A DNA stretch of 19,034 nucleotides. It comes from Fidelibacterota bacterium (GTDB taxonomy: Bacteria > Fidelibacterota > Marinisomatia > Marinisomatales > TCS56). Shown here piece after piece: positions 2,009-16,358 of the stretch (positions are counted from its first letter, which is position 1; each line of letters starts with the position of its first letter). The notes beneath the pieces are model-generated. The model saw nothing but the letters and a program-made list of their open reading frames with translations, was not told the DNA's origin and did no database searches. A program made the translations under genes and the position numbers. The stretch lies in the NCBI GenBank assembly GCA_043822705.1, contig JBDRBK010000179.1, forward strand, positions 1 through 19,034, given 5' to 3'.

Positions 2009-4225
2009 TTATGTTTTAATAGGAATATTAATTACAGGTGTCAAAGGTCTGATCTGGGTTCTATAACGCGATGTTATTTTATTGTAAATATTATTATCAT
2101 TTTTAACTGTCACAGCAATAACCATTGCATATCTCAGTTTTGGGGCAAACAACCGAGCGTTACGCCCACTTTCCCTGGCCATATAATGAATATCAAATAC
2201 CGGTCCTTTTAAACTTGCTCCTCGCTTTGTTTTTTCACTATGCATTGTTGTTTCCCATTTCAAAGAATCCATTCGTAGTTCAAGTTCACCAGAATAGTTA
2301 CCGGCGCTAAAAAAAGAATCTGTTATTGCCACAGTTGAATCTTCTCTAAACTTATCTTCATGCGGTCGAAATATCACACCAATTCCGGCTTTTGTGTAAT
2401 TCCCAATGTGGTTCGACTCAGTATCAGATACATAGCATAATGTTGCTTTAATATTTACATTGCCACTTATTTGTTCTTCTGGTAGTGGAATCTTTGCACG
2501 TATCACAGTTCCTGGTAATATCTCACCCTGATATAGAATTCTTACAGAACCCGGAGAGCAAATAACTAATTTTTCAATATTATTAGGAACCTTACCCCAT
2601 CCGATCTCATGTCTATTTTCACGGTTAGGAGTAGAACAATTTATCAGTAAAGTTTTAATGGCTAAAATACTTATTAAATTTCCAAAGTGAGCTCGAACTC
2701 CCATACCTAAACGCATAACAGATGGAGAGGCAAAGCTAGTTCCAACCGAAGGGGAATTCATCAGAGTATCACCATTTATTGTATTAAATGGCATATCTTC
2801 TGAACCGCCAAAAGCAACTACATCCGGCTTAATTAAACCGGGGCTACGCCCGGGTCCTATTGAGCTGTATGATGCACGCAACCAATTATCGTCTGTTGAG
2901 TCGATACTCCCAACACTTAAACCATTTACTGAATCAGAAGGAACTTGTATTCTATTAAATCTTAATATAGGATCAAGCTCACCTCCGTTGCCAACTGCTA
3001 TCGTACATAATGTATTGCCATTAGACAGTATTTCGTCAATAACAGATGTCCATACATGGACTTCATCATCTTCTATTGGCAATTCGGGTCCGATACTTAA
3101 ATTAACAAATTCATAAATATTAGATTGCAAAATGTCGCGAATCCGAATCAAAACATCAAAAAGATCTTCGTCTTGATCTATATTATTGTCTAATACCCTA
3201 TAATGGTCGATATAACCAAACGGACGGGGTATTTCTTCATCTTCTTGTATGTGACCAAATAAGGCTGAAGATGTTACTTTTTCGCCATGCTCTAAATAAT
3301 TTGGATTTGTTTGTAGGCACCCCTCGGTTTCATATGGGTTGGTCCAAGTAATTAGTGGGGATTTTGCTCTTATTCCCCCATCAAAAATTGCACCTACCAG
3401 TCCAGGGTCTATTGGTACACCAGTCGGCAATTGAATAGAAAAAAGATTTGCATTGTCATCGATATTTTGTCTAATTGGATGTGGTCTCAATCTTGGCATT
3501 GGTCTTATAGCTCGGATAAGTGAAAAATTCGCAAGTTGTTCAATCTGTTCTGGTCTTGAAACAGTTGGAATAAAAACAAGACCATTCGTTGATATACTTC
3601 GTCTCAAATCGGGGATAACACCAAGTGTCGTGGCATAACTATTATATGATAAATTAATGTCAATTTCTTCTTGCTGTATGTCTGTATGTATAACAACCTC
3701 ATATTTATTATTATGCGTACTTAGTGTGCCACCTTTTATTTTATCAATTGGTCTAATTGATGAAAATTTTTCAAATCGAGTAAGTTCGTCTCGAAGTTTA
3801 TTGTTAGCACTAAAAGTATTAAAGATTTCGGGCCATGCTTCAAGCTTGTTTTTATTACATGCTACGAAGTACTCTATTGTGAATGTTGGTATCATTTCCC
3901 TTTCAGTCGAGAACCTTCTTGGAACAATCTGTATTAGTTTGCTACCAACAATATCAACAGAAAGCTCATTAAATATTGTTTGAGGGTAATATGACATTGC
4001 CATGAATTCGGGATGCAAAACAAAAGATACTACAGCTATATTTTTGGGAAGAGAAAGCACGGGCATAGCATTTACAGTAGTAACTATTGCGCCAATATCT
4101 TGAGTTAAAAATTCCAAAGATTCACTATAATCATATACAGGTTTTTTCTCAATTTTTCTTCCAGGGAGTGTTGTCGGCTCTGATAGCCGTTCACCAAAAC
4201 CCAATATAAAATTTTGATTTAGCAT
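2009..4225 (-). CDS. S8 subtilisin-like serine peptidase, IetS/Y4bN-like
   Basis: Catalytic motifs FDGG (Asp), HGEKVTS (His), VGNGG (oxyanion Asn), KPDVVAFGG, GTSFASP (Ser). No signal peptide. SD-like TGAGGA upstream. Directly downstream of an AAA ATPase. Confidence 0.92.
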   Translation of the reverse strand: MLNQNFILGFGERLSEPTTLPGRKIEKKPVYDYSESLEFLTQDIGAIVTTVNAMPVLSLPKNIAVVSFVLHPEFMAMSYYPQTIFNELSVDIVGSKLIQIVPRRFSTEREMIPTFTIEYFVACNKNKLEAWPEIFNTFSANNKLRDELTRFEKFSSIRPIDKIKGGTLSTHNNKYEVVIHTDIQQEEIDINLSYNSYATTLGVIPDLRRSISTNGLVFIPTVSRPEQIEQLANFSLIRAIRPMPRLRPHPIRQNIDDNANLFSIQLPTGVPIDPGLVGAIFDGGIRAKSPLITWTNPYETEGCLQTNPNYLEHGEKVTSSALFGHIQEDEEIPRPFGYIDHYRVLDNNIDQDEDLFDVLIRIRDILQSNIYEFVNLSIGPELPIEDDEVHVWTSVIDEILSNGNTLCTIAVGNGGELDPILRFNRIQVPSDSVNGLSVGSIDSTDDNWLRASYSSIGPGRSPGLIKPDVVAFGGSEDMPFNTINGDTLMNSPSVGTSFASPSVMRLGMGVRAHFGNLISILAIKTLLINCSTPNRENRHEIGWGKVPNNIEKLVICSPGSVRILYQGEILPGTVIRAKIPLPEEQISGNVNIKATLCYVSDTESNHIGNYTKAGIGVIFRPHEDKFREDSTVAITDSFFSAGNYSGELELRMDSLKWETTMHSEKTKRGASLKGPVFDIHYMARESGRNARLFAPKLRYAMVIAVTVKNDNNIYNKITSRYRTQIRPLTPVINIPIKT

Positions 4226-4238
4226 ATATATTTCCTCA

Positions 4239-5333
4239 TTATATGTTTTGCCTAATTGTATCTCGACTGACCCCTGTTAATTTGTTGGCCAATCTTTGAG
4301 ATAATACATTTTCCGATACCAAATATGTAGCAAAGGCTTTTTTTTCAGGTTTTGTTAAAGAATCAACATGTTTTGAAATAAGTCTTTTAGCGTGTTCTTC
4401 AAGAGATTCGTTGTTAATCGCTAGAGCCCTTTTTACACGATTAATTTCCCTTTCTATATCACTAAATGAAAAATTTGAAAAGAGCCGTGCTATTACTTCT
4501 ACCCATGGCCCATGTTCTTGCCCAAAAGACCCAAGAAAGGTTATTACGGCCTTTCTTACTAGCTGAATATCTGGCATAGGAAAATTTATAAGCACATCAA
4601 ACCGTCTCCATATTGCAGGATCTAGCAAGTCTGGATGGTTTGTTGCCGCAATTATCAAGCCTGTTGATGGCCAATCATCAATTTCCTGTAATAAAACAGT
4701 TACCAGCCTTTTTAATTCACCAACTTCAGTTGAATCATCGCGCTTTTTGGCAATTGCGTCGAATTCATCTAGCAACAGAATACACTTCATGCTTTTTGCA
4801 TATTCTAACACACTACGGATATTGTTACCCGTTCTACCTAAAAAACTGCTCATTACAGCAGATAGGTCTAGTGTAAAAAGAGGCATATTTAATTCGCGCG
4901 CAATCCAATGCGCAGCCATAGATTTTCCCACGCCGGGCTTACCAGTAAAAATTACTGATTTCGATGGAGTGAGACCAATTTCTTCAAGACGATGCACATT
5001 TTGCCATTCAATAACTAGTTGGGTGATTTGTCGACCCAGATCTTCCTCCATGATAGGTTCATATTCTAGGCCTATATTAGGATTGTAGCGCAGTAATTGA
5101 ACTCGCGAGTCTATGTCCACCGGGATTGCATCTTTAATTCCTTTAACTGGAGAAAGTCTTGTGGGTGAACTACGCATAATCGATAAAATCTTTTCTCCGA
5201 AATTGGGCTTTTCATCTTTAAACTGCAGGTAAATTCTTCTTAGTAGTAACTGTACGTCTTGTTCGCGTCCTGTAAGCGCAACCCTGGCAAGGTGGGCTAT
5301 TATTTCTTCATACTTCATATTGTCGTCCAGCAT
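4239..5333 (-). CDS. AAA+ ATPase, IetA/Y4kL-like
   Basis: Walker A GKPGVGKS, Walker B LLLDEFD, sensor-1 IAATN, Arg finger DPAIWRRFD. Start is probably ATG 5333 (AAGGAG upstream) or 5318, not 5450. Confidence 0.93.
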   Translation of the reverse strand: MLDDNMKYEEIIAHLARVALTGREQDVQLLLRRIYLQFKDEKPNFGEKILSIMRSSPTRLSPVKGIKDAIPVDIDSRVQLLRYNPNIGLEYEPIMEEDLGRQITQLVIEWQNVHRLEEIGLTPSKSVIFTGKPGVGKSMAAHWIARELNMPLFTLDLSAVMSSFLGRTGNNIRSVLEYAKSMKCILLLDEFDAIAKKRDDSTEVGELKRLVTVLLQEIDDWPSTGLIIAATNHPDLLDPAIWRRFDVLINFPMPDIQLVRKAVITFLGSFGQEHGPWVEVIARLFSNFSFSDIEREINRVKRALAINNESLEEHAKRLISKHVDSLTKPEKKAFATYLVSENVLSQRLANKLTGVSRDTIRQNI

Positions 5334-5552
5334 CCCGTTATTTGTCTCCTTCGGTGTTTGGTTTAATTTATACCTATATGGACCAATATGCAACCACACA
5401 AGCATTACCAGTCCATTTTCAAGGATGGCGTCGATTATGATTGGCATCATAATTCACTCTTCATTAATACTATTCATAATGTCATACCCAGCCCCTTTAG
5501 AAAATTTCGTCCCCCATGAAATGAATTTGGTGCACTAAATGTCATTCGCTGC

Positions 5553-5585: not shown

Positions 5586-5629
5586 TACCGGCCGGAAACA
5601 TCCTATCGGCAAAGTGTCTCCGGCCGGTA
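5586..5629 (-). terminator. Strong hairpin just downstream of the small hypothetical gene
   Basis: TACCGGCCGGAAACA (5586-5600) / TGTCTCCGGCCGGTA (5615-5629): 15-bp stem, 1 mismatch, 14-nt loop, 8 nt past the stop. No clear U-tract. Confidence 0.5.
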
Positions 5630-5637
5630 TTTAGCGG

Positions 5638-5952
5638 CTACCTTTTAGCCGTAATCCCGAACTCGACCCAGCGTGATTTATCCATAGCCAGTTTCACCAC
5701 TTTGGTGGCTTCGCTGAGTTGGTTCTTGATTTCCAGAACCTGGGCGTCCAGTTCGGCCGTCTTGGTTTTCAGGGCGGCCTTGAGGGCCTCCTGTTCACCG
5801 TTCAGTGCTTCGGCATTCGTGGCAGCGGTTCCCAGGGCGGTTATGAATTCGGCGCTGAGTCCCCGGGCGGCCACCGCCGCGGCATTGGCCTGCAGGCCGG
5901 TAACCATCACCTTGGTGGTGCTGATTAATTCAGCGAAGGATGTATTTCCCAT
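5638..5952 (-). CDS. 104-aa alpha-helical/coiled-coil hypothetical protein
   Basis: ATG 5952 with AAAGGA SD. Amphipathic Ala/Leu/Lys/Glu-rich sequence (LNGEQEALKAALKTKTAELD) ending WVEFGITAKR. From recollection only, it resembles uncharacterised small proteins of Bacteroidota. Confidence 0.8.
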   Translation of the reverse strand: MGNTSFAELISTTKVMVTGLQANAAAVAARGLSAEFITALGTAATNAEALNGEQEALKAALKTKTAELDAQVLEIKNQLSEATKVVKLAMDKSRWVEFGITAKR

Positions 5953-5973
5953 GCTTGTTTCCTTTCTGTTGTT

Positions 5974-6097
5974 GGCGGGGTCGTTCAGCGGTCGTAATTG
6001 ACAGCCCCCCGCCACCTGGCCGGGCGACTATCACGCGCATCAGCGCCCGGTCGGGTCGAACCAGGCGCTGTGCGGCCGGATGCAGTCATCGGGTGGC
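5974..6097 (-). ncRNA. Putative structured leader RNA upstream of the small gene
   Basis: Inner 11-bp stem 6041-6051/6060-6070, whose single mismatch is a G-U pair only on the minus strand. Extended by CGCA/TGCG, GACT/AGTC and GCCACC/GGTGGC (6011-6016/6092-6097). Alternative helix GGCGGGG/CCCCGCC (5974-5980/6007-6013). Confidence 0.55.
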
Positions 6098-6120
6098 TTC
6101 GGAAAACAATAGTCGATTTG

Positions 6121-6309
6121 GGACGAAAGCATAATCCACCGGGACGAACAACCGGTCCATCCGGACGGAGTCGTGATCCATGTGGACGAAAGGAAGGTCT
6201 ATCGGGACGAAGGCGTGGTCCATATGGACGGAAGGTCGGTCCACCCGGACGAAGCAGTGGTCCACCTGGACGAAAGGATCGTCCACCGGGACGGAAGGTT
6301 GGTCCGGAT
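6121..6309. repeat. Tandem array of nine 21-bp quasi-palindromic units, consensus GGACGRA-N6-RTCCAYNN
   Basis: Units start at 6121, 6142, 6163, 6184, 6205, 6226, 6247, 6268, 6289. Period is exactly 21 nt, GGACG is invariant, and all nine 6-nt cores differ. Confidence 0.95.
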
Positions 6310-6490
6310 AAAAACCAGGCAAAGCGTGTCGGAATACGGAACGTGCTATACTGCCACCCGTGACAATTGACATAAACATACCCCGTTTAATTAAAAACTC
6401 CGCCTGAAATTAATAAAATATCGGTGCACTGGCATTCAATTGATAATCGGGATCGCATTGACAATCGGCATTGACTGCGACAGCGTCTAT

Positions 6491-7504
6491 TCAGGAATCA
6501 TAATTGACCAATCCGGTTTCCATTTCGAGCAGCTCGTGCAATTTGGCGCGCAGCAGTTGTTTATCGATCAGCCTGGTTTCATAATCGGCGATCAGGGTTG
6601 GTGAAATATTGCGGGCCAGGGCGAATTCCACCACTTCGGCGTCTTTTCCTTTGCAGAGCAAAATCCCGACACTGGGATTCTCATGCCCCTTCTTAAACTC
6701 CCGGTCCAGGGCCTCCGGATAGAAATTCATTTTTCCCAGAAATTCCGGTTTAAAATCTTCGGTTTTCAGTTCCACCGCTACCAGACACTGGAGATCACGG
6801 TGGAAGAACAGTAAATCAAGATAGTAGTCATGGTTACCCACCTCTACACGATATTCCTGGCCGATAAACGAGAATCCCCGGCCCAATTCCAGGATGAAAT
6901 CCTTCAGGTTCGCTACCAGCGCTTTTTGCAGGTCGTTCTCAGAGTAATTTTTAGGCAAATCCAGAAATTCAAAGATGTAAGTATCTTTGAAAAAATGCGC
7001 CGTTTGTGATTGTGTCACCACCGGCAGGGTTTTGCCGCCGGCCGGCAATGTCCGCTCATATACCGCCGTATTCAATTGTCTTTCGAGTTCACGTGAAGAC
7101 AGTTTATCCCCGATTGTAAGATTTACGTAAAACTCCCTCTCAGCCCTTGATTTTGTTTTTGCCAATATTAATCGATGGTGGATCCAGGTTAATTGTGCCC
7201 GCAGTGCGGACACTTATTCATGATCTTTGTACGTCTCATAAAACTGTTTCATTCGGTAAAGGCCGCGGCGGGTGAAGCCTTTGGTGTCAGGATACTGGTC
7301 ACGAATAAATTCCACCAGATTATCCACCACGCCGGAACCCCACTCCGCCGATGCCACTTTTTCTGAAATAAACTTGCCCGTTTCGTAGTACAGGTTAATC
7401 AGTTCCGCGTTTACCTGAGCAAGCGCCCGCCCGCGGGCGGACTGAATCATTAAAATAATATGCTGAAAGTCCCGGTTTAAATCAGTGGAAATATTACCGC
7501 GCAT
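6491..7504 (-). pseudogene. YhcG/DUF1016 PDDEXK nuclease-domain gene interrupted by an in-frame stop
   Basis: ORFs 7214..7504 (DUF1016_N: VNAELINLYYETG, WGSGVV, GFTRRGLYRMKQFY) and 6491..7213 (KDTYIFEFL, ELGRGFSFIG, YLDLLFFHRDLQCLVAVELK) share one frame and are separated only by TAA at 7214-7216. Confidence 0.85.
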
Positions 7505-7678: not shown

Positions 7679-8020
7679 ATGCACGAAATGTCAATTGCCA
7701 TGAACGTGGTGGAAATCGCCACCAGCCAGGCCCTCCAGAATGAAGCCCGGCGAATCAATTCGATCACCCTGGATATCGGCAGTCTGGCGGGAGTGATGAT
7801 CGAGGCGCTGGAATTCTGCTTCGCTTCTGTTGGCAAAGGCACCATGGCCGAAGGGGCCGAATTGCGGATCAATGAGATTGCCGCCTGGGGCTGCTGCCGC
7901 GACTGCGGCGAAGAATTCCGCACCGAAACCTACCTGACGGCCTGTCCGGCCTGCGGCGCTTTCCGGATTGACATTATCCGGGGGCGGGAACTGAAGATTA
8001 AAACCATCAATGTTGATTAG
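7679..8020 (+). CDS. hypA: Hydrogenase maturation nickel metallochaperone HypA
   Basis: N-terminal MHE Ni motif, two CxxC (CRDC, CPAC), GREL near the C-terminus. Confidence 0.97.
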   Translation: MHEMSIAMNVVEIATSQALQNEARRINSITLDIGSLAGVMIEALEFCFASVGKGTMAEGAELRINEIAAWGCCRDCGEEFRTETYLTACPACGAFRIDIIRGRELKIKTINVD

Positions 8021-8028
8021 GACCAATT

Positions 8029-8817
8029 ATGTGTGACACCTGCGGCTGCGGAGCTGACGAAGTAACGATCCGGAAACCGGGGCAACAACCCGGCCACGCC
8101 CATACGCACGACCTCCATCATGATCATTCTCACGATCACACCCACGACCACGATCATTCCCACGCCATCATCGTGGAACAGGATCTGCTGACCCGGAACA
8201 ATCTGCTGGCGGAGCGCAACCGCGGCTATTTTGAAGCTCTGGGCATCCTGGCCCTGAACCTGGTCAGTTCGCCCGGTTCCGGCAAGACCACCCTGCTGGA
8301 AAAAACGATCGCGGCCCTGAAAGATGAAATTAAAATCGCGGTGATCGAAGGCGACCAGCAGACCACCAACGACGCCGACCGGATTGCCAAAAGCGGCGCC
8401 CCGGTGATTCAGGTCAATACCGGCGCCGGCTGCCACCTGGATGCCAACATGATCAACCGGGCGGCCAAGGAACTGGAACCGGCCGGAGATTCCCTGCTGC
8501 TGATCGAAAACGTCGGCAACCTGGTCTGCCCGGCCCTGTTCGATCTGGGCGAGGCCCACAAGGTGGTGATCATCAGCGTCACCGAAGGTCAGGACAAGCC
8601 GGAAAAATATCCCCACATGTTCGCCGCCGCCGATCTTTGTATCATCAACAAGACCGACCTGCTGCCCTACGTCGATTTCGACGTGGAAAAATGCAAGCAG
8701 TTGGCCCTGCAGGTGAATCACCACCTGCGGTTTATCGAACTTTCGGCCCGGACGGGGGAAGGCTTGGAGGACTGGCTGGTCTGGATCAAAAAAGAACTGG
8801 CGACCCGGCAGAAATAA
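8029..8817 (+). CDS. hypB: Hydrogenase nickel incorporation GTPase HypB
   Basis: N-terminal CxxCGC, His-rich linker, SSPGSGKT, CHLDA, ENVGNLVCP, NKTDL. Confidence 0.98.
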   Translation: MCDTCGCGADEVTIRKPGQQPGHAHTHDLHHDHSHDHTHDHDHSHAIIVEQDLLTRNNLLAERNRGYFEALGILALNLVSSPGSGKTTLLEKTIAALKDEIKIAVIEGDQQTTNDADRIAKSGAPVIQVNTGAGCHLDANMINRAAKELEPAGDSLLLIENVGNLVCPALFDLGEAHKVVIISVTEGQDKPEKYPHMFAAADLCIINKTDLLPYVDFDVEKCKQLALQVNHHLRFIELSARTGEGLEDWLVWIKKELATRQK

Positions 8818-8823
8818 CGTTTG

Positions 8824-11088
8824 ATGACCTTACGGAAACGAATCCGGGTCAACGGAATTGTACAGGGGGTCGGCTTCCGCCCCTTCATTTTTAACCTGGC
8901 CCACAGGCACCGGCTCGGCGGCTTTGTTACCAATGCTTCCACCGGCGTCATCATCGAAGTTCAGGGTCCGGAGTCGGCCATAACCGAATTTTTAACCGCT
9001 ATCAGCCGGGACGCCCCGCCCCTGGCGCTGATCACCGAAATTTCCGCCAGCGACCTTTCCCTCTCCGGCGCGGGTGAATTTGTAATTACTGCTTCCGATA
9101 ACCAGGCACCGGTGGCCACGATGATCTCTCCCGATATCGCCGTCTGCGACGATTGCCGCCGGGAACTGTTCGATCCGGCCGACCGCCGCTACCGCTACCC
9201 GTTTATCAACTGCACCAACTGCGGGCCGCGCTACACGATTATCGAGGCCTTGCCTTATGACCGGCCGCTGACGTCGATGCGCGATTTTAAGATGTGTCCC
9301 GCCTGCCAGGCCGAGTACGACGATCCCGCCAACCGGCGCTTCCATGCCCAGCCCAACGCCTGTCCGGTCTGCGGCCCGCGGCTGAAGCTTTTAAACATCG
9401 ATAAACAAGTGATCGCAGCCGCCGATCCAATCAAGGAAACGGTCCGGTTGCTGAAAGCCGGGAAGATTCTGGCAATCAAGAGCCTGGGCGGTTTTCACTT
9501 AGCAGTCGACGCGACCGACGCTGTCGCCGTAACCGAGCTGCGGCGCCGCAAGCAGCGTGAGGAAAAACCGCTGGCGGTGATGGTTAAAGATCTGACGGCA
9601 GCCCGGCAAATCTGTGAATTAACTGCGGCGGAAGAGGATTTGCTGGTATCGCCGCGCGCCCCGATCGTGCTGGCCCGCAAGCGCGCTGATTTACCTTTGG
9701 CCGATGAAGTTGCCCCCGGCAACGACCGCCTTGGCGTCATGCTGCCCTACACGCCCCTGCACCACCTGCTGCTGGCGGAGTATTTTGATGCACTGGTGAT
9801 GACCAGCGCCAACCTCAGCGAGGAGCCGATCTGCATCGCTAATTCTGAAGCGTTCGAACGGCTGCGGAATATAACTGATTTCGTGCTGGTCCACGACCGC
9901 GATATTTACCTGCGTGGCGACGATTCGGTGTTCATTCATCTGGCCGGTAAAAACCGGCCGCTGCGTCGCAGTCGCGGTTACGCTCCCGCGCCGGTGTTGG
10001 TGAAATCGGTTGGTGCACCGTTACTGGCGGTGGGCGGCGAATTGAAAAATACCGTCTGTCTTCTGCAGGACGACCGGGCGTTTATGAGCCAGCATATCGG
10101 CGACCTGGAAAATCTGGAAGCCTACAATTTCTTCCGCAAGACCATCGACCACCTGCAAAAGATATTTGACACGCAGCCGGAACTAATCGTTCACGATCTA
10201 CATCCCCGCTACCTGTCCACCCAGTGGGCCAAAGAGCAGCCTGTGCCACTGCTGGGGGTCCAGCATCACCACGCCCACCTGGCCGCGGTGCTGGCCGAGC
10301 ATCGACTGGACGAACCGGTGATCGGGATCATTATGGATGGCACCGGTTACGGCAGCGACGGCACGATCTGGGGTGGCGAAATATTAATCGGTGACTTCAG
10401 CGGTTTCGAGCGCTTCGCCGCATTTGAACCGCTGCCCCTGCCCGGTGGTGATGCCGCCATCAAGGCGCCTTGGCGCACGGCGGTGGCTTATCTCCAGGAT
10501 ACCTTCGGGGACGATCTGCCCGATTTACCGTTTTTGCAGGAGGTTGAACACCAACCGATCAGCGAAATGGTGGCCAAAAACATTAATTGTTTTCCAACCA
10601 GCAGTTGCGGGCGCCTGTTCGACGCGGTGGCGGCCATGGCCGGCGGCCGTCCAACAATCCGCTATGAAGGTCAGGCGGCGATTGAATTGATGCAGGCCGC
10701 CGCCGCAATCAGTGGTAGTCCGTTTGACTTTTCCTTTGCCAGGAATGGCGCCTTGACTCAAATGGAAGTTAAGCCGCTGATCCGGTCCGTAGTTGAGGCG
10801 CTACGGACCGGCGCCGGTTTTGCTGAAATCGCCCGGCGCTTTCACCGGACGCTGATAGAGATATTCTCAGCAATTGTTGAGAAAGCCCGAAATGATTCAG
10901 GTATCGACAAAGTTGTTATTAGCGGTGGAGTTTTTCAGAACCAGTTGTTGTTTGAAAATCTGATTCCGCGCCTCGAAAAAGGTAAATTTGAAGTATTCGC
11001 CCATGAACAGGTACCTACCAACGATGGCGGCATCGCCCTGGGACAGGCCCTGATCGGCCGGAAGAAGCTGGAATCAGGCAATGTTTGA
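8824..11088 (+). CDS. hypF: Carbamoyltransferase HypF
   Basis: Acylphosphatase GIVQGVGFRPF, zinc fingers CDDC/CTNC/CPAC/CPVC, QHHHAH, DGTGYGSDG, PTNDGGIALGQ. Start is ATG 8824 or TTG 8821. Confidence 0.98.
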   Translation: MTLRKRIRVNGIVQGVGFRPFIFNLAHRHRLGGFVTNASTGVIIEVQGPESAITEFLTAISRDAPPLALITEISASDLSLSGAGEFVITASDNQAPVATMISPDIAVCDDCRRELFDPADRRYRYPFINCTNCGPRYTIIEALPYDRPLTSMRDFKMCPACQAEYDDPANRRFHAQPNACPVCGPRLKLLNIDKQVIAAADPIKETVRLLKAGKILAIKSLGGFHLAVDATDAVAVTELRRRKQREEKPLAVMVKDLTAARQICELTAAEEDLLVSPRAPIVLARKRADLPLADEVAPGNDRLGVMLPYTPLHHLLLAEYFDALVMTSANLSEEPICIANSEAFERLRNITDFVLVHDRDIYLRGDDSVFIHLAGKNRPLRRSRGYAPAPVLVKSVGAPLLAVGGELKNTVCLLQDDRAFMSQHIGDLENLEAYNFFRKTIDHLQKIFDTQPELIVHDLHPRYLSTQWAKEQPVPLLGVQHHHAHLAAVLAEHRLDEPVIGIIMDGTGYGSDGTIWGGEILIGDFSGFERFAAFEPLPLPGGDAAIKAPWRTAVAYLQDTFGDDLPDLPFLQEVEHQPISEMVAKNINCFPTSSCGRLFDAVAAMAGGRPTIRYEGQAAIELMQAAAAISGSPFDFSFARNGALTQMEVKPLIRSVVEALRTGAGFAEIARRFHRTLIEIFSAIVEKARNDSGIDKVVISGGVFQNQLLFENLIPRLEKGKFEVFAHEQVPTNDGGIALGQALIGRKKLESGNV

Positions 11089-11103
11089 ATCAGGAATAAT
11101 TTA

Positions 11104-11168
11104 TCACCCTGAGACTGTCGAAGGGTGTAATTTTTCTATATTCTCATGCTTCGACACGCTCAGCATGA
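11104..11168. repeat. REP/REPIN-like inverted doublet
   Basis: TCACCCTGAGACTGTCGAAGGGTG (11104-11127) and CATGCTTCGACACGCTCAGCATGA (11145-11168) are inverted relatives, each self-palindromic, around a 17-nt AT spacer. Confidence 0.8.
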
Positions 11169-11195
11169 CCGTAACTAGTATAAAAAGGTAGAACT

Positions 11196-11498
11196 ATGTG
11201 TTTAGGAATTCCGGGAAAAGTGATTGAGACCTACGAGGAAAATGGCCTGCTGATGGGCAAAGTTGATTTTGCCGGTACGATAAGTCAGGCCTGTCTGGCT
11301 TATGTACCGGAGATTGAAATCGGCCAGTACACGATTGTTCATGCCGGTTTCGGGATATCGATCGTCGATGAGGATGAGGCCCGCAAGACCTACGAAGCCT
11401 GGGAAGAACTGGTGGAAGCTGCCGCTAAGGAGGGAGTGGATTTATACGGCCAACCGCTGCCTAAAACCAGCAGTGGAGATGAGAAGTTGAGGCGATGA
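11196..11498 (+). CDS. hypC: Hydrogenase assembly chaperone HypC/HupF
   Basis: MCLGIPG start, VHAGFGI motif, position between hypF and hypD; carries a C-terminal extension. Confidence 0.96.
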
Positions 11499-11502
11499 TG
11501 GG

Positions 11503-11575
11503 AGCGAAGCAAAGAGCAAAGAGCAGAGAGCGAAGAGGCCAACAACCTTTAACTCCATTACTCCTGTTCTCAAGT
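11503..11575. repeat. Short-period intergenic repeats (7-mers then 8-mers)
   Basis: AGCAAAG AGCAAAG AGCAGAG AGCGAAG (11508-11535); ACTCCATT ACTCCTGT TCTCAAGT (11552-11575). Confidence 0.7.
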
Positions 11576-11580
11576 TTTTT

Positions 11581-12672
11581 ATGAAATATTTAGACGAATT
11601 CCGCGACCCACAAGTCGCCCGGGAAATTCTGGCCGAACTACACCAGACGGTGACCCGGCCCTGGGTGATCATGGAAATCTGTGGCGGGCAGACCCATTCA
11701 ATTATCAAGAATGGAATCGATCAGGTCATCCCCAGAGAGATCGAATTAGTCCACGGACCCGGTTGTCCGGTTTGCGTCACCCCCCTGGAAATAATCGATC
11801 AGGCCATTGCGATTGCCTCCCGGCCCAACGTGATATTCACAAGTTTTGGCGATATGCTGCGGGTGCCGGGCAGCCACAGTGATTTATTTATGGCGCGGAG
11901 TACCGGTGCCGATGTGCGAACGGTGTTTTCGCCTTTGGAGGCGTTAAAAATTGCCCGGGAAAATCCCGATTGGGAAGTGGTGTTTTTTGCCGTTGGATTC
12001 GAAACCACCGCCCCCGGAAACGCCATGGCGATCAACCAGGCCAAGGTCGAAGGTTTGACCAACTTCAGTGAACTGGCCAGTCACGTGCTGGTGCCGCCGG
12101 CCATGGAGGCGCTGCTGTCGTCGCCGGATAATCGCGTGCAGGGATATCTGGCGGCGGGCCATGTATGTACGATAATGGGTTGGGAAGAATACCAACCCAT
12201 TGCCGCCAAATACCGGGTGCCGATCGTGGTCACCGGATTTGAACCAGTCGATATTCTGGAGGGGCTGCTGATGACGGTCAAACAACTGGAATCAGGCCGC
12301 CATGAGGTCGAAAACCAGTATGTGCGCTCGGTCCGCCGTGAGGGCAACCGTCCTGCTCAGGATATCATCAAGCGTGTCTTTGAACCGGTCGCCCGCAAAT
12401 GGCGTGGCATCGGCGAAATTCCGCTCAGCGGCTACGGTATTCGCGAAGAATACGCCGTGTTCGACGCGGAGAAGAAATTTTCCGTGGGCAATATCACGAC
12501 TGAAGAATCGCCGCTGTGCATCAGCGGTGAAGTGCTCCGGGGTTTGAAGAAACCCCACGAATGCCCGGCTTTCGGCAAGGAATGTCTGCCGGAGCATCCC
12601 CTGGGGGCGCCGATGGTTTCCAGCGAAGGTGCATGCGCCGCCTACTATTGTTATAATCGAAAAGTTATTTAA
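11581..12672 (+). CDS. hypD: Hydrogenase formation protein HypD
   Basis: [28 protein letters not shown]-terminal Fe-S cysteines, [12 protein letters not shown]. Confidence 0.98.
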
Positions 12673-12704
12673 CCCAGAATCGAACAAGAACACTCAGTAA
12701 TTAT

Positions 12705-13766
12705 ATGTCTGATAAAACCTGTTTTCCCGAAGCACTGTCCTGTCCCCTGCCGATCATGGATTACGATACGATTCAATTATCCCACGGCGCCGGCGGCAAG
12801 CTGTCGGCCCAGTTGATCGAAAAACTGTTTCTGCCACGTTTTGGAAATCAGACCCTTGATAAATTGGAGGATCAGGCAGTTCTGACCCTGCCACCCGGCC
12901 GGGTGGCTTTCACTACCGATTCGTTTGTGGTTGATCCGATATTTTTCCCTGGCGGCGATATCGGCGACTTGGCGGTTAACGGCACGGTAAACGACATTTG
13001 CATGAGCGGAGCTGACCCGCTGTATATCAGCGTTGCCTTCATTCTGGAAGAGGGCTTGCCCATGGAAACGCTTCACCGTATTTTACTTTCGATGGAAACC
13101 GCCGCCCGGGCGGCCGGAGTCACAATTGTGACCGGCGATACCAAGGTGGTTAATCACGGAAAATGCGACCGGATTTTTATCAATACTTCCGGCCTGGGGG
13201 TGGTGCCGGATGGAGTTAATGTTTCAGCAGCCAACCTGCAGCCGGGGGATAAAATTATTATCTCCGGCACAGTGGCCGATCATGGTATGGCGGTCATGAC
13301 CACCCGTGAAGGATTGTCTTTTCAGTCCCGTATTAGTAGCGATACTGCTCCTCTGAACGGACTGGTAAAAGCAATGCTGGCGGCGACCAGGGAAATCCAT
13401 GCCATGCGCGATCCCACCCGTGGCGGATTGGCAACCTCGCTGAATGAATTCGCCCGGTCATCCAAAGTCGGAATTCGCCTGGAAGAGGGTGCGGTTCCGG
13501 TCCGGCCGGAAGTAAACGGCGCCTGCGAAATCCTGGGGATAGATCCGCTCTATGTGGCCAACGAAGGCAAGCTGGTTGCGGTGGTGCCCGGGCAAATTGC
13601 AGGCCAGGTCTTGACAGCCATGCGGCGACATCGGTATGGTCAGGATGCCACCATCATTGGTGAAGTTACATCTGATAATCCCGGACTGGTTATCATGCAC
13701 ACAGGACTGGGCGCCAACCGAATTGTCGATATGCCGGTTGGCGATCTACTGCCGCGGATTTGCTGA
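12705..13766 (+). CDS. hypE: Carbamoyl dehydratase HypE
   Basis: HGAGG, DSFVVDPIFFPGGDIG, GDTKVV, RDPTRGG, ANEGK, C-terminal PRIC. Confidence 0.98.
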   Translation: MSDKTCFPEALSCPLPIMDYDTIQLSHGAGGKLSAQLIEKLFLPRFGNQTLDKLEDQAVLTLPPGRVAFTTDSFVVDPIFFPGGDIGDLAVNGTVNDICMSGADPLYISVAFILEEGLPMETLHRILLSMETAARAAGVTIVTGDTKVVNHGKCDRIFINTSGLGVVPDGVNVSAANLQPGDKIIISGTVADHGMAVMTTREGLSFQSRISSDTAPLNGLVKAMLAATREIHAMRDPTRGGLATSLNEFARSSKVGIRLEEGAVPVRPEVNGACEILGIDPLYVANEGKLVAVVPGQIAGQVLTAMRRHRYGQDATIIGEVTSDNPGLVIMHTGLGANRIVDMPVGDLLPRIC

Positions 13767-15659: not shown

Positions 15660-16358
15660 ATGGAATTACAGGTTCTAATTTTCACTGCGATAAGCATCGG
15701 ATTCGTACATACTCTGATTGGGCCGGATCACTACATACCATTTATCATGATTGGACGGGCACGGAACTGGTCCCTGCGTTTTACCGCCATGATTACTGCG
15801 CTTTGTGGTGTCGGCCATGTTTTGGGATCGGTGGTTCTTGGTTTGCTGGGAATTGCCCTGGGCGTGGCCGTCGGCACCCTGGAACGGGTGGAGGCTGTCC
15901 GTGGTGATCTGGCGAGCTGGCTGCTTGTAGGCATCGGTGTGGCGTACGCCGCTTGGGGTCTCCGGATCGGCCTGCGCGCCGGCGAGCATGTTCATGAACA
16001 CGACCACAAGGAAGGGCATCACGATCACCGCCACCATCATTTGAGCAGCCATACCCACATTCACGGCGACACCAGTTCCGTCACCCCCTGGGCCCTGTTT
16101 ATTATTTTTGTGCTGGGTCCCTGCGAGCCGCTGATTCCGCTTCTGATGTATCCGGCGGCCAAGAATAGTTGGCTGGATCTGGCCTGGGTAACGCTGGCCT
16201 TCGGTGTGGTAACGATCCTGACCATGACGGCAATTGTAGTGGCGATGCACCGGGGATTGATCAACCTGCGCTTCGGAAAGCTGGAACGCTACATGCATGC
16301 CATCGCCGGTATTATTATCGCCCTGTCCGGATTGTCGATTATGCTGTTCGGGCTGTAA
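15660..16358 (+). CDS. Nickel/cobalt transporter-like membrane protein (UreH/DsbD_2/NiCoT-related)
   Basis: HTLIGPDH TM1 motif, GHV in TM2, His-rich loop, GPCE motif, about 6 TM; close to the hyp operon. Confidence 0.75.
   Translation: MELQVLIFTAISIGFVHTLIGPDHYIPFIMIGRARNWSLRFTAMITALCGVGHVLGSVVLGLLGIALGVAVGTLERVEAVRGDLASWLLVGIGVAYAAWGLRIGLRAGEHVHEHDHKEGHHDHRHHHLSSHTHIHGDTSSVTPWALFIIFVLGPCEPLIPLLMYPAAKNSWLDLAWVTLAFGVVTILTMTAIVVAMHRGLINLRFGKLERYMHAIAGIIIALSGLSIMLFGL

Follow-up and report, generated by a model that had tools for sequence, protein, structure and literature searches.

A gene for a small all-helical protein and an adjoining non-coding array of 21-nt repeats form a widespread, apparently unpublished bacterial module

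Non-coding tandem repeats with a constant unit size of 20-21 nt have been reported in many bacterial groups by Subirana and Messeguer, with several sequence families per genome and short conserved cores, and these authors suggest a protein that needs the constant repeat size in order to polymerise on DNA (PMC8161180); in the sections of that paper available to us, no partner gene is named and the word palindrome is absent. Plasmid centromere and iteron systems, such as parC/ParR of R1 (PMC2241845) and parH/ParG of TP228 (PMC3130281), place a small-protein gene beside phased repeats near its own promoter, as outlined in the parts of these reports on which we draw. From the corresponding parts of two further papers, the BrickBuilt MITE of Porphyromonas gingivalis (Bacteroidota) forms dispersed, intergenic, non-coding tandem arrays of 23-nt units, with common leader and tail units that have inverted ends (PMC4596501), and type III toxin-antitoxin loci (ToxIN, CptIN and TenpIN) are ordered as repeats, hairpin and gene, with repeat units of 36 nt or longer (PMC3401426). 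The PQLLE protein family (NCBIfam NF052641) is also relevant here, and our literature search found no described function for it.

Here, we analysed a locus in a 19,034-nt stretch of DNA (the window) from a Fidelibacterota bacterium. Its features, and the two neighbours outside the module, are as follows.

6117 to 6305, minus strand: non-coding array of nine 21-nt units, in each of which GGAC and GTCC form inverted cores at distances of 13 and 8 nt
6086 to 6379, minus strand: 97-aa heptad ORF overlying the array, probably spurious; no Pfam match, and negative in the family-level coding tests
5999 to 6074, minus strand: leader with two G+C-rich hairpins, specific to this locus and not a family feature
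5960 to 5965, minus strand: Shine-Dalgarno-like AAAGGA, 7 nt ahead of the ATG
5638 to 5952, minus strand: gene whose 104-aa product is all-helical, with a helical hairpin, a helix of 56 residues and a WxEFGI cap at the C-terminus
5586 to 5629, minus strand: 15-bp hairpin 3' of the stop codon, probably the transcript end; found family-wide
2009 to 5450, minus strand: IetA/IetS-like ATPase and S8 peptidase in low-G+C DNA, a neighbour outside the module
6491 to 7504, minus strand: YhcG/DUF1016 nuclease gene, read as two in-frame ORFs, a neighbour outside the module

The nine 21-nt units listed in the initial annotation were recovered on the minus strand from 6305 to 6117, with every spacing exactly 21. 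On average, two units are 67% identical, and eight columns, located in the cores GGAC and TCGTCC, vary little or not at all. Periodicity scores 72.8 compared to a maximum of 15.6 in 1000 shuffles, in agreement with TRF. The 104-aa gene with its good Shine-Dalgarno sequence (ORF 5638-5952, AAAGGA 7 nt 5' of the ATG) was likewise confirmed, as was the 15-bp hairpin (5586-5600 with 5615-5629, z = -5.8), an inverted repeat that the terminator scan missed because it has no U-run. The leader had been described as one hairpin of ~90 nt; it is indeed structured (folding z = -2.94, with 1 of 200 shuffles equally good), but it consists of two adjacent hairpins (about 6074-6036 and 6033-5999), which have no U-run either in the terminator scan. 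The flanks are as first described, with IetA/IetS-like genes on one side and a YhcG/DUF1016 gene on the other. The IetA/IetS-like pair scores under the NCBIfam equivalog cut-offs and was probably acquired recently, since it lies in DNA of 33-41% G+C in a genome of 53% G+C, and the YhcG/DUF1016 gene reads as consecutive in-frame ORFs of 96 and 240 aa that one stop codon apparently splits. Judged by their translations, the genes at 7679-13766 (plus strand) are presumably a hydrogenase maturation cluster of the ordinary kind (hypA, B, F, C, D, E-like), and 15660-16358 (plus strand) is presumably a nickel-transporter-like gene. The window has no match in Rfam, and a CRISPR array was rejected, the units being head-to-tail and 67% alike with no spacers.

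A profile search found 562 representatives of the 104-aa family at 50% clustering. Among 165 gene matches, 138 have at least 500 nt of upstream sequence, and periodicity at lags of 20, 21 or their multiples was found in 118 of these 138 upstream windows compared to 5 of 144 downstream windows. After removal of 55 matches that were near-duplicates or too near a contig end, an array lies upstream at 95 of 110 non-redundant loci, which upholds the expectation that homologs would show a ~21-nt periodicity there; the period is 21 in 86 loci and 20 in seven, with two doubtful short calls. The arrays have a median of 10 units and end a median of 107 nt before the gene start. As a control, arrays are present in 9 of 800 upstream windows of the window genome, which is repeat-rich, and in 3 of 107 control windows taken from other genomes. 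Loci found later behave alike: of ten, eight come with an array of their own, another is second in a tandem pair of genes that follows an array, and the last has none. A copy on a Treponema plasmid also has an array, and Riemerella copies have at most a trace.

The 15 loci without an upstream array at the threshold include three in which it is visibly decayed (L002, L010 and L155), two in which it follows the gene instead (L037 and L059) and some operonic ones in which none is visible. The array can thus stand on either side; it is downstream of the gene in L120 as well, and in L037 and L059 it lies past a terminator-like hairpin. The pairing extends to two other protein families, as PQLLE loci have a 21-nt array in 14 of 22 cases (one of them downstream), and a helical+beta family, found via a gene on contig C65 of the window genome, has a 22-nt array at six of nine loci, with two more under the threshold. 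Neighbour genes are not conserved, falling into 459 clusters among 568 ORFs, and the most frequent of them, Cas3, is present at 8 of 110 loci. One locus, L253 (G810), was dropped as a false array with a seemingly coding repeat; L200, L201 and L205 were rejected as homologs, being unrelated coiled-coil matches with no array; and a search of 400 sampled Bacteroidota genomes for the gene gave weak matches only. Taken together, these results bear out the proposal of an undescribed, conserved gene-plus-array module: the module is real and widespread, and it is apparently unpublished, as nothing on the pairing was found in a search of a literature collection with few subscription journals.

One clade (L007, L009, L087, L090, L092, L094, L099 and related loci) immediately follows cas3 within CRISPR-Cas operons that resemble type I-B; five of the loci have cas1 downstream, and the array unit differs at most loci. 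In another genome (G827), the gene occurs twice in tandem with a single array ahead (L259 and L264, G827:C19:82599-83561); G827 carries four strong copies along with two PQLLE-like genes, and only the second tandem copy lacks an array.

The 104-aa protein has no family match in Pfam, PHROGs or PADLOC and no sequence match in the PDB. Its AlphaFold2 model (pLDDT 95.6) has helices at residues 6-22, 24-28, 34-89 and 92-98 and no strands. Searches with this model gave nothing at E <= 0.001 in Foldseek and nothing at Z >= 8 in VIA, where the top match (Z 7.0, rmsd 4.2, 87 aligned residues) is in the range of generic helical matches; these results are not proof of a new fold. By structure and PDB sequence searches, the fold resembles no known nucleic-acid-binding family and no nuclease fold. 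The conserved residues are Q54, E55, K58, K62, T65, K87, W95, F98 and G99, hence positions of the types Q, E, K, T, W, F and G, with no evident catalytic residues. The family is mildly basic (median net charge +2, window protein +1), and PQLLE proteins are mostly acidic.

Weak matches to the PQLLE model were found for 112 of 131 family members. The window protein scores 21.2 bits, over positions 110-201 only of the 211-position model; since it has half the length and falls far under the membership cut-off of 80 bits, it is not a PQLLE member. In PQLLE proteins, the 104-aa domain occurs twice, and by sequence comparison the 104-aa protein is a single-domain relative of the PQLLE family. The fusion of two copies in PQLLE suggests that the 104-aa protein probably acts as a dimer. 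A single-sequence model of PQLLE is poor (pLDDT 52.7), and its helix pattern alone echoes two domains. Look-alikes in the ESM Atlas, all predicted models, are fused to carboxypeptidase-regulatory-like or FN3 domains (TM 0.79 and 0.59).

Hosts of the 104-aa family belong to at least seven phyla, including Bacteroidota, Spirochaetota, Chloroflexota, Bacillota, Myxococcota, Calditrichota and Fidelibacterota. The distribution is patchy: the window genome has four copies, one of them frameshifted, compared to none in 100 relatives, and mobile replicons rarely carry the family (one viral contig, five plasmid records and no phage records). The frameshifted fourth paralog (G000:C136:41622-41934) has retained its array. 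The founding gene of the helical+beta family encodes a 198-aa protein (L207, G000:C65:19414-20310) behind a 22-nt array, with nothing found for it in Pfam, NCBIfam, PADLOC or PHROGs. Its broken paralog (L208, C13:18044-18663) has a 20-nt array, the two loci have ~120 nt in common upstream of the arrays, and several 22-nt solo arrays look like the C65 array.

Unit sequence turns over. At 75-90% protein identity, 57% of array pairs share at least 15 of 21 letters, compared to 0.5% at 35-45% identity; the unit thus tracks the protein at short range only and is random beyond about 50% identity, and the four paralogs in the window genome have four different arrays. The window-type unit GTCC-N4-GGAC recurs with distant proteins (L155, L263, L264 and L265), which suggests that there is no evident one-to-one code between protein and unit sequence. 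What is kept, besides the period, is a division of each unit into a purine-rich and a pyrimidine-rich half (first harmonic z = 22), together with a dyad: in a per-unit stem test, stems reach p <= 0.05 in 33 of 92 arrays and lie above the null mean in 76 of 92, with inverted cores mostly 8+13, 9+12 or 10+11 nt apart. This test was used in place of a whole-consensus palindrome test, which was weak (8 of 95 arrays at p <= 0.05). The 20-nt arrays are confined to two protein clades (4 changes compared to 6.9 when shuffled), one of which also has two 21-nt arrays. Because the 22-nt sample is one clade in six genomes, and the C13 paralog has a period of 20, plain inheritance could account for the period.

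The arrays gave no sign of A/T bending phased at 10.5 nt. Family-wide, the A/T content of the units has a 7-nt harmonic (z = 5.3), and the window genome (G000) also holds separate 7-nt tandem repeats (C13, C60, C84, C100, C178 and C192). GTAG-type palindromes, which we take to be REP-like, lie just upstream of several arrays (L003, G000:C115:80037 and C136:734).

Arrays also occur alone. The window genome has about 23 intergenic arrays of period 20-22. Two gene-less ones, C30 and C38, have 21% of 7-mers in common with the window array, which C30 matches at E = 3e-10; the gene-less C25 has 29% in common with the linked C115 and the gene-less C57 28% with the linked C199, and other pairs have mostly 1-10%. 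Solo arrays of the linked type are present in the window genome and in three of five host genomes searched. There are six in Tannerella G101, and G105-G107 (Chloroflexota) hold two or three apiece; the sites are orthologous between genomes, and the solos are 77-90% identical to the linked array. G102 and G110 have a linked array only. Near the solos there is no gene remnant and no flank in common with the linked array, and a BLAST of the flanks found no common terminal repeats, the only links being genes or orthologous sites. Among 81 genomes of that Chloroflexota family, its unit type is present in three, all of them gene-bearing, plus one false match. Three Tannerellaceae genomes (G767, G780 and G785) have Tannerella-type solos with neither protein family found; most of these matches lie at contig ends, in genomes whose completeness is not given. 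One Tannerella solo (L169, G101:C102) has a 14-nt motif in inverted orientation at its two flanks, TA-rich at the ends and similar to MITE termini, and motifs related to those of L169 flank L173.

The position of promoters bears on how the array is read. The motif TAnnTTTG, which we take to be the Bacteroidota promoter, has 21 matches at -60 to -41 among 54 Bacteroidota loci, compared to five in the next bin, and many of these matches stem from one related Bacteroidales clade. Of 37 loci, 14 have it between the array and the gene, in 13 cases at -41 to -56, and eight have it ahead of the array. RNA contigs at the Seramator locus L012, from four runs, are of low depth, and their starts differ between studies. 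At this locus, contigs from two studies skip 382 nt (L012:3711-4092, most of the array and the gene start), a natural deletion, and in another contig the upstream DNA is different and the module starts at 3641.

Two readings would make the array a transcribed element. An array that encodes a heptad-repeat peptide partnering the helical protein is suggested by the ATG-started 97-aa ORF (6086-6379) that spans the window array, and by a gene-strand open frame in 59 of 92 arrays compared to 46.6 expected. However, the opposite strand has an equal excess (54 compared to 45.4), the gene strand of 33 of 92 arrays is without an open frame, and an ATG-started one exists in just 31 of 92. Seven arrays have a 20-nt period, non-21 spacings occur in 23 of 95 arrays, the sister family has a period of 22, and no codon-phase signal was found. 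The periods of 20 and 22, the broken spacings, the frameless arrays and the missing codon phase together rule out a general heptad peptide, so that this reading, largely refuted at family level, is barely credible; the 97-aa ORF, which the initial annotation does not mention, is judged a by-product. The arrays are non-coding, and they account for a recurring class of spurious heptad-repeat ORFs. The alternative is an RNA of arrayed hairpins by which the protein would be bound, titrated or neutralised, in a way that resembles type III toxin-antitoxin systems. The dyad units could fold as short hairpins, the window array with its leader folds at z -2.87, double-change pairs reach 1.29 times expectation at the best axis, and 52-nt repeats in Bacillus are reported as transcribed (PMC8625621). 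The defence-like context in the initial annotation also points this way, and the enrichment is positive but weak: defence-like neighbours make up 21 of 130 compared to 4 of 90 in controls (p = 0.009), with p = 0.055 when the cas3 clade is counted once and p = 0.13 when three housekeeping look-alikes are removed as well. Against it, dyad mismatches are symmetric (191 G-U compared to 225 A-C; 30 compared to 28 arrays), compensatory change stays within the range of slid controls (which reach 1.26, with the partner axis at 0.9), and the gene strand folds better in just 38 of 88 arrays. There is no conserved hairpin between array and gene, where 15 of 77 loci fold (median z -0.7), so the structured leader did not hold as a family feature; the 3' hairpin did, with z < -2 at 58 of 90 loci. 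The promoter motif between array and gene, the arrays behind a terminator-like hairpin in L037 and L059, and the lack of an Rfam match and of a nuclease fold argue in the same direction. The protein also stands outside ToxN, CptN and TenpN, as first noted, with none of these found for it in Pfam, NCBIfam, PADLOC or PHROGs and no PDB sequence match. An array acting as RNA read together with the gene, as the initial annotation had proposed, was therefore not supported, with no G-U bias, no covariation, no strand advantage and a promoter motif in between, and we consider an RNA partner quite improbable. Taken together, these tests favour the array as a DNA element, which may still be transcribed.

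As to what such a DNA element does, we propose tentatively, and with slightly less than even confidence, a two-part accessory module in which the protein assembles on its cognate array of double-stranded DNA, with units phased two helical turns apart. In each 21-bp unit, two inverted half-sites would face the same side of the helix; the protein, probably dimeric, would bind one unit and assemble cooperatively along about ten units, with the conserved lysines 58, 62, 64, 84 and 87 as candidate contact residues. Beside its own promoter the complex would tune expression of the protein, and at solo arrays the same complex would form in trans, possibly for local chromosome organisation, regulation or a role in conflict; it would work like a centromere or iteron array, outside those systems. 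The pairing, the fixed period with turnover of the unit, the dyad pattern, the independence of side, the solos with the same unit and the PQLLE homology are consistent with such assembly, and the weak basicity, the recurring unit types, the lack of a match to a known nucleic-acid-binding family, the missing bending signal, the loci with no upstream array, the two host genomes with a linked array only and the solos in genomes with neither protein family found speak against it. The weak basicity, the recurring unit types and the solos in such genomes would be expected if the protein makes no contact, and the array is a cis element for a host factor or a fast-evolving minisatellite riding with the gene; the report of 20-21-nt repeats in many bacterial groups (PMC8161180) also fits. 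This reading is distinctly unlikely, as the linkage spans seven phyla and three protein families despite the turnover of units, neighbour genes are not conserved, and the period tracks the protein lineage. Selfish propagation, by contrast, would have the protein drive the birth, expansion or copying of arrays, or recombination between arrays move the module, with solos as non-autonomous offspring, just as REP sequences are the non-autonomous offspring of RAYT transposases. The solos, alike to the linked array with no common flank or gene remnant, the patchy, multi-copy distribution, the inverted motifs at the Tannerella solo L169 and the start of a related strain's module behind other upstream DNA (one contig) would suit it. 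With no evident catalytic residues, solos that stay at orthologous sites, no common terminal repeats and a module rare on mobile replicons, we regard it as very improbable. Assembly on double-stranded DNA remains our preferred reading, and it has a broader form, which we find somewhat unlikely: the whole superfamily (the 104-aa, double-domain PQLLE and beta-sandwich-fused proteins) may act as a molecular ruler that reads spacing and dyad geometry and not a fixed sequence, assembles on its own and solo arrays, sets the 20-22-bp period of the constant-size bacterial repeats and possibly aids their spread.

Compared to the described systems, the window array belongs to the constant-size 20-21-nt repeat class of Subirana and Messeguer, having nine units in this size range (family median 10), no coding function and several array families in the genome; it differs in having a specific gene family beside most loci and a dyad pattern in its units. 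PQLLE loci share the homologous domain and the 21-nt arrays, and differ in a protein of double length. In contrast to centromere and iteron systems, there is no ParA/ParM or Rep among the recurrent neighbours, no ribbon-helix-helix or winged-helix fold is seen in the predicted 104-aa model, and the module is mostly chromosomal, with dispersed solos. Unlike BrickBuilt, one array copy is tied to a protein gene and the solos have no common flanks. The repeats-hairpin-gene order at this locus resembles type III toxin-antitoxin loci, but the units are 21 nt long, the protein has no toxin homology or nuclease fold and an all-helical model, a terminator between array and gene is not a family-wide feature, and the promoter motif often lies downstream of the array.

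What is new here is the single-domain family, its domain link to PQLLE, periods of 20, 21 and 22 that go with protein lineage, a dyad pattern in the units, the cognate solos and the tests that speak against RNA. Many bacteria keep non-coding repeats of 20-21 bp while the sequence of these repeats drifts, and the 104-aa protein offers a small, confidently modelled candidate for the polymerising protein proposed by Subirana and Messeguer (PMC8161180). Because one genome holds four paralogs with four arrays, which gives natural cognate and non-cognate pairs, and natural variants of 20, 21 and 22 bp exist, the idea of a ruler lends itself to straightforward tests of binding and of swapped partners. 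Should the idea hold, it would mean a new DNA-binding fold and a mode of recognition that reads geometry.
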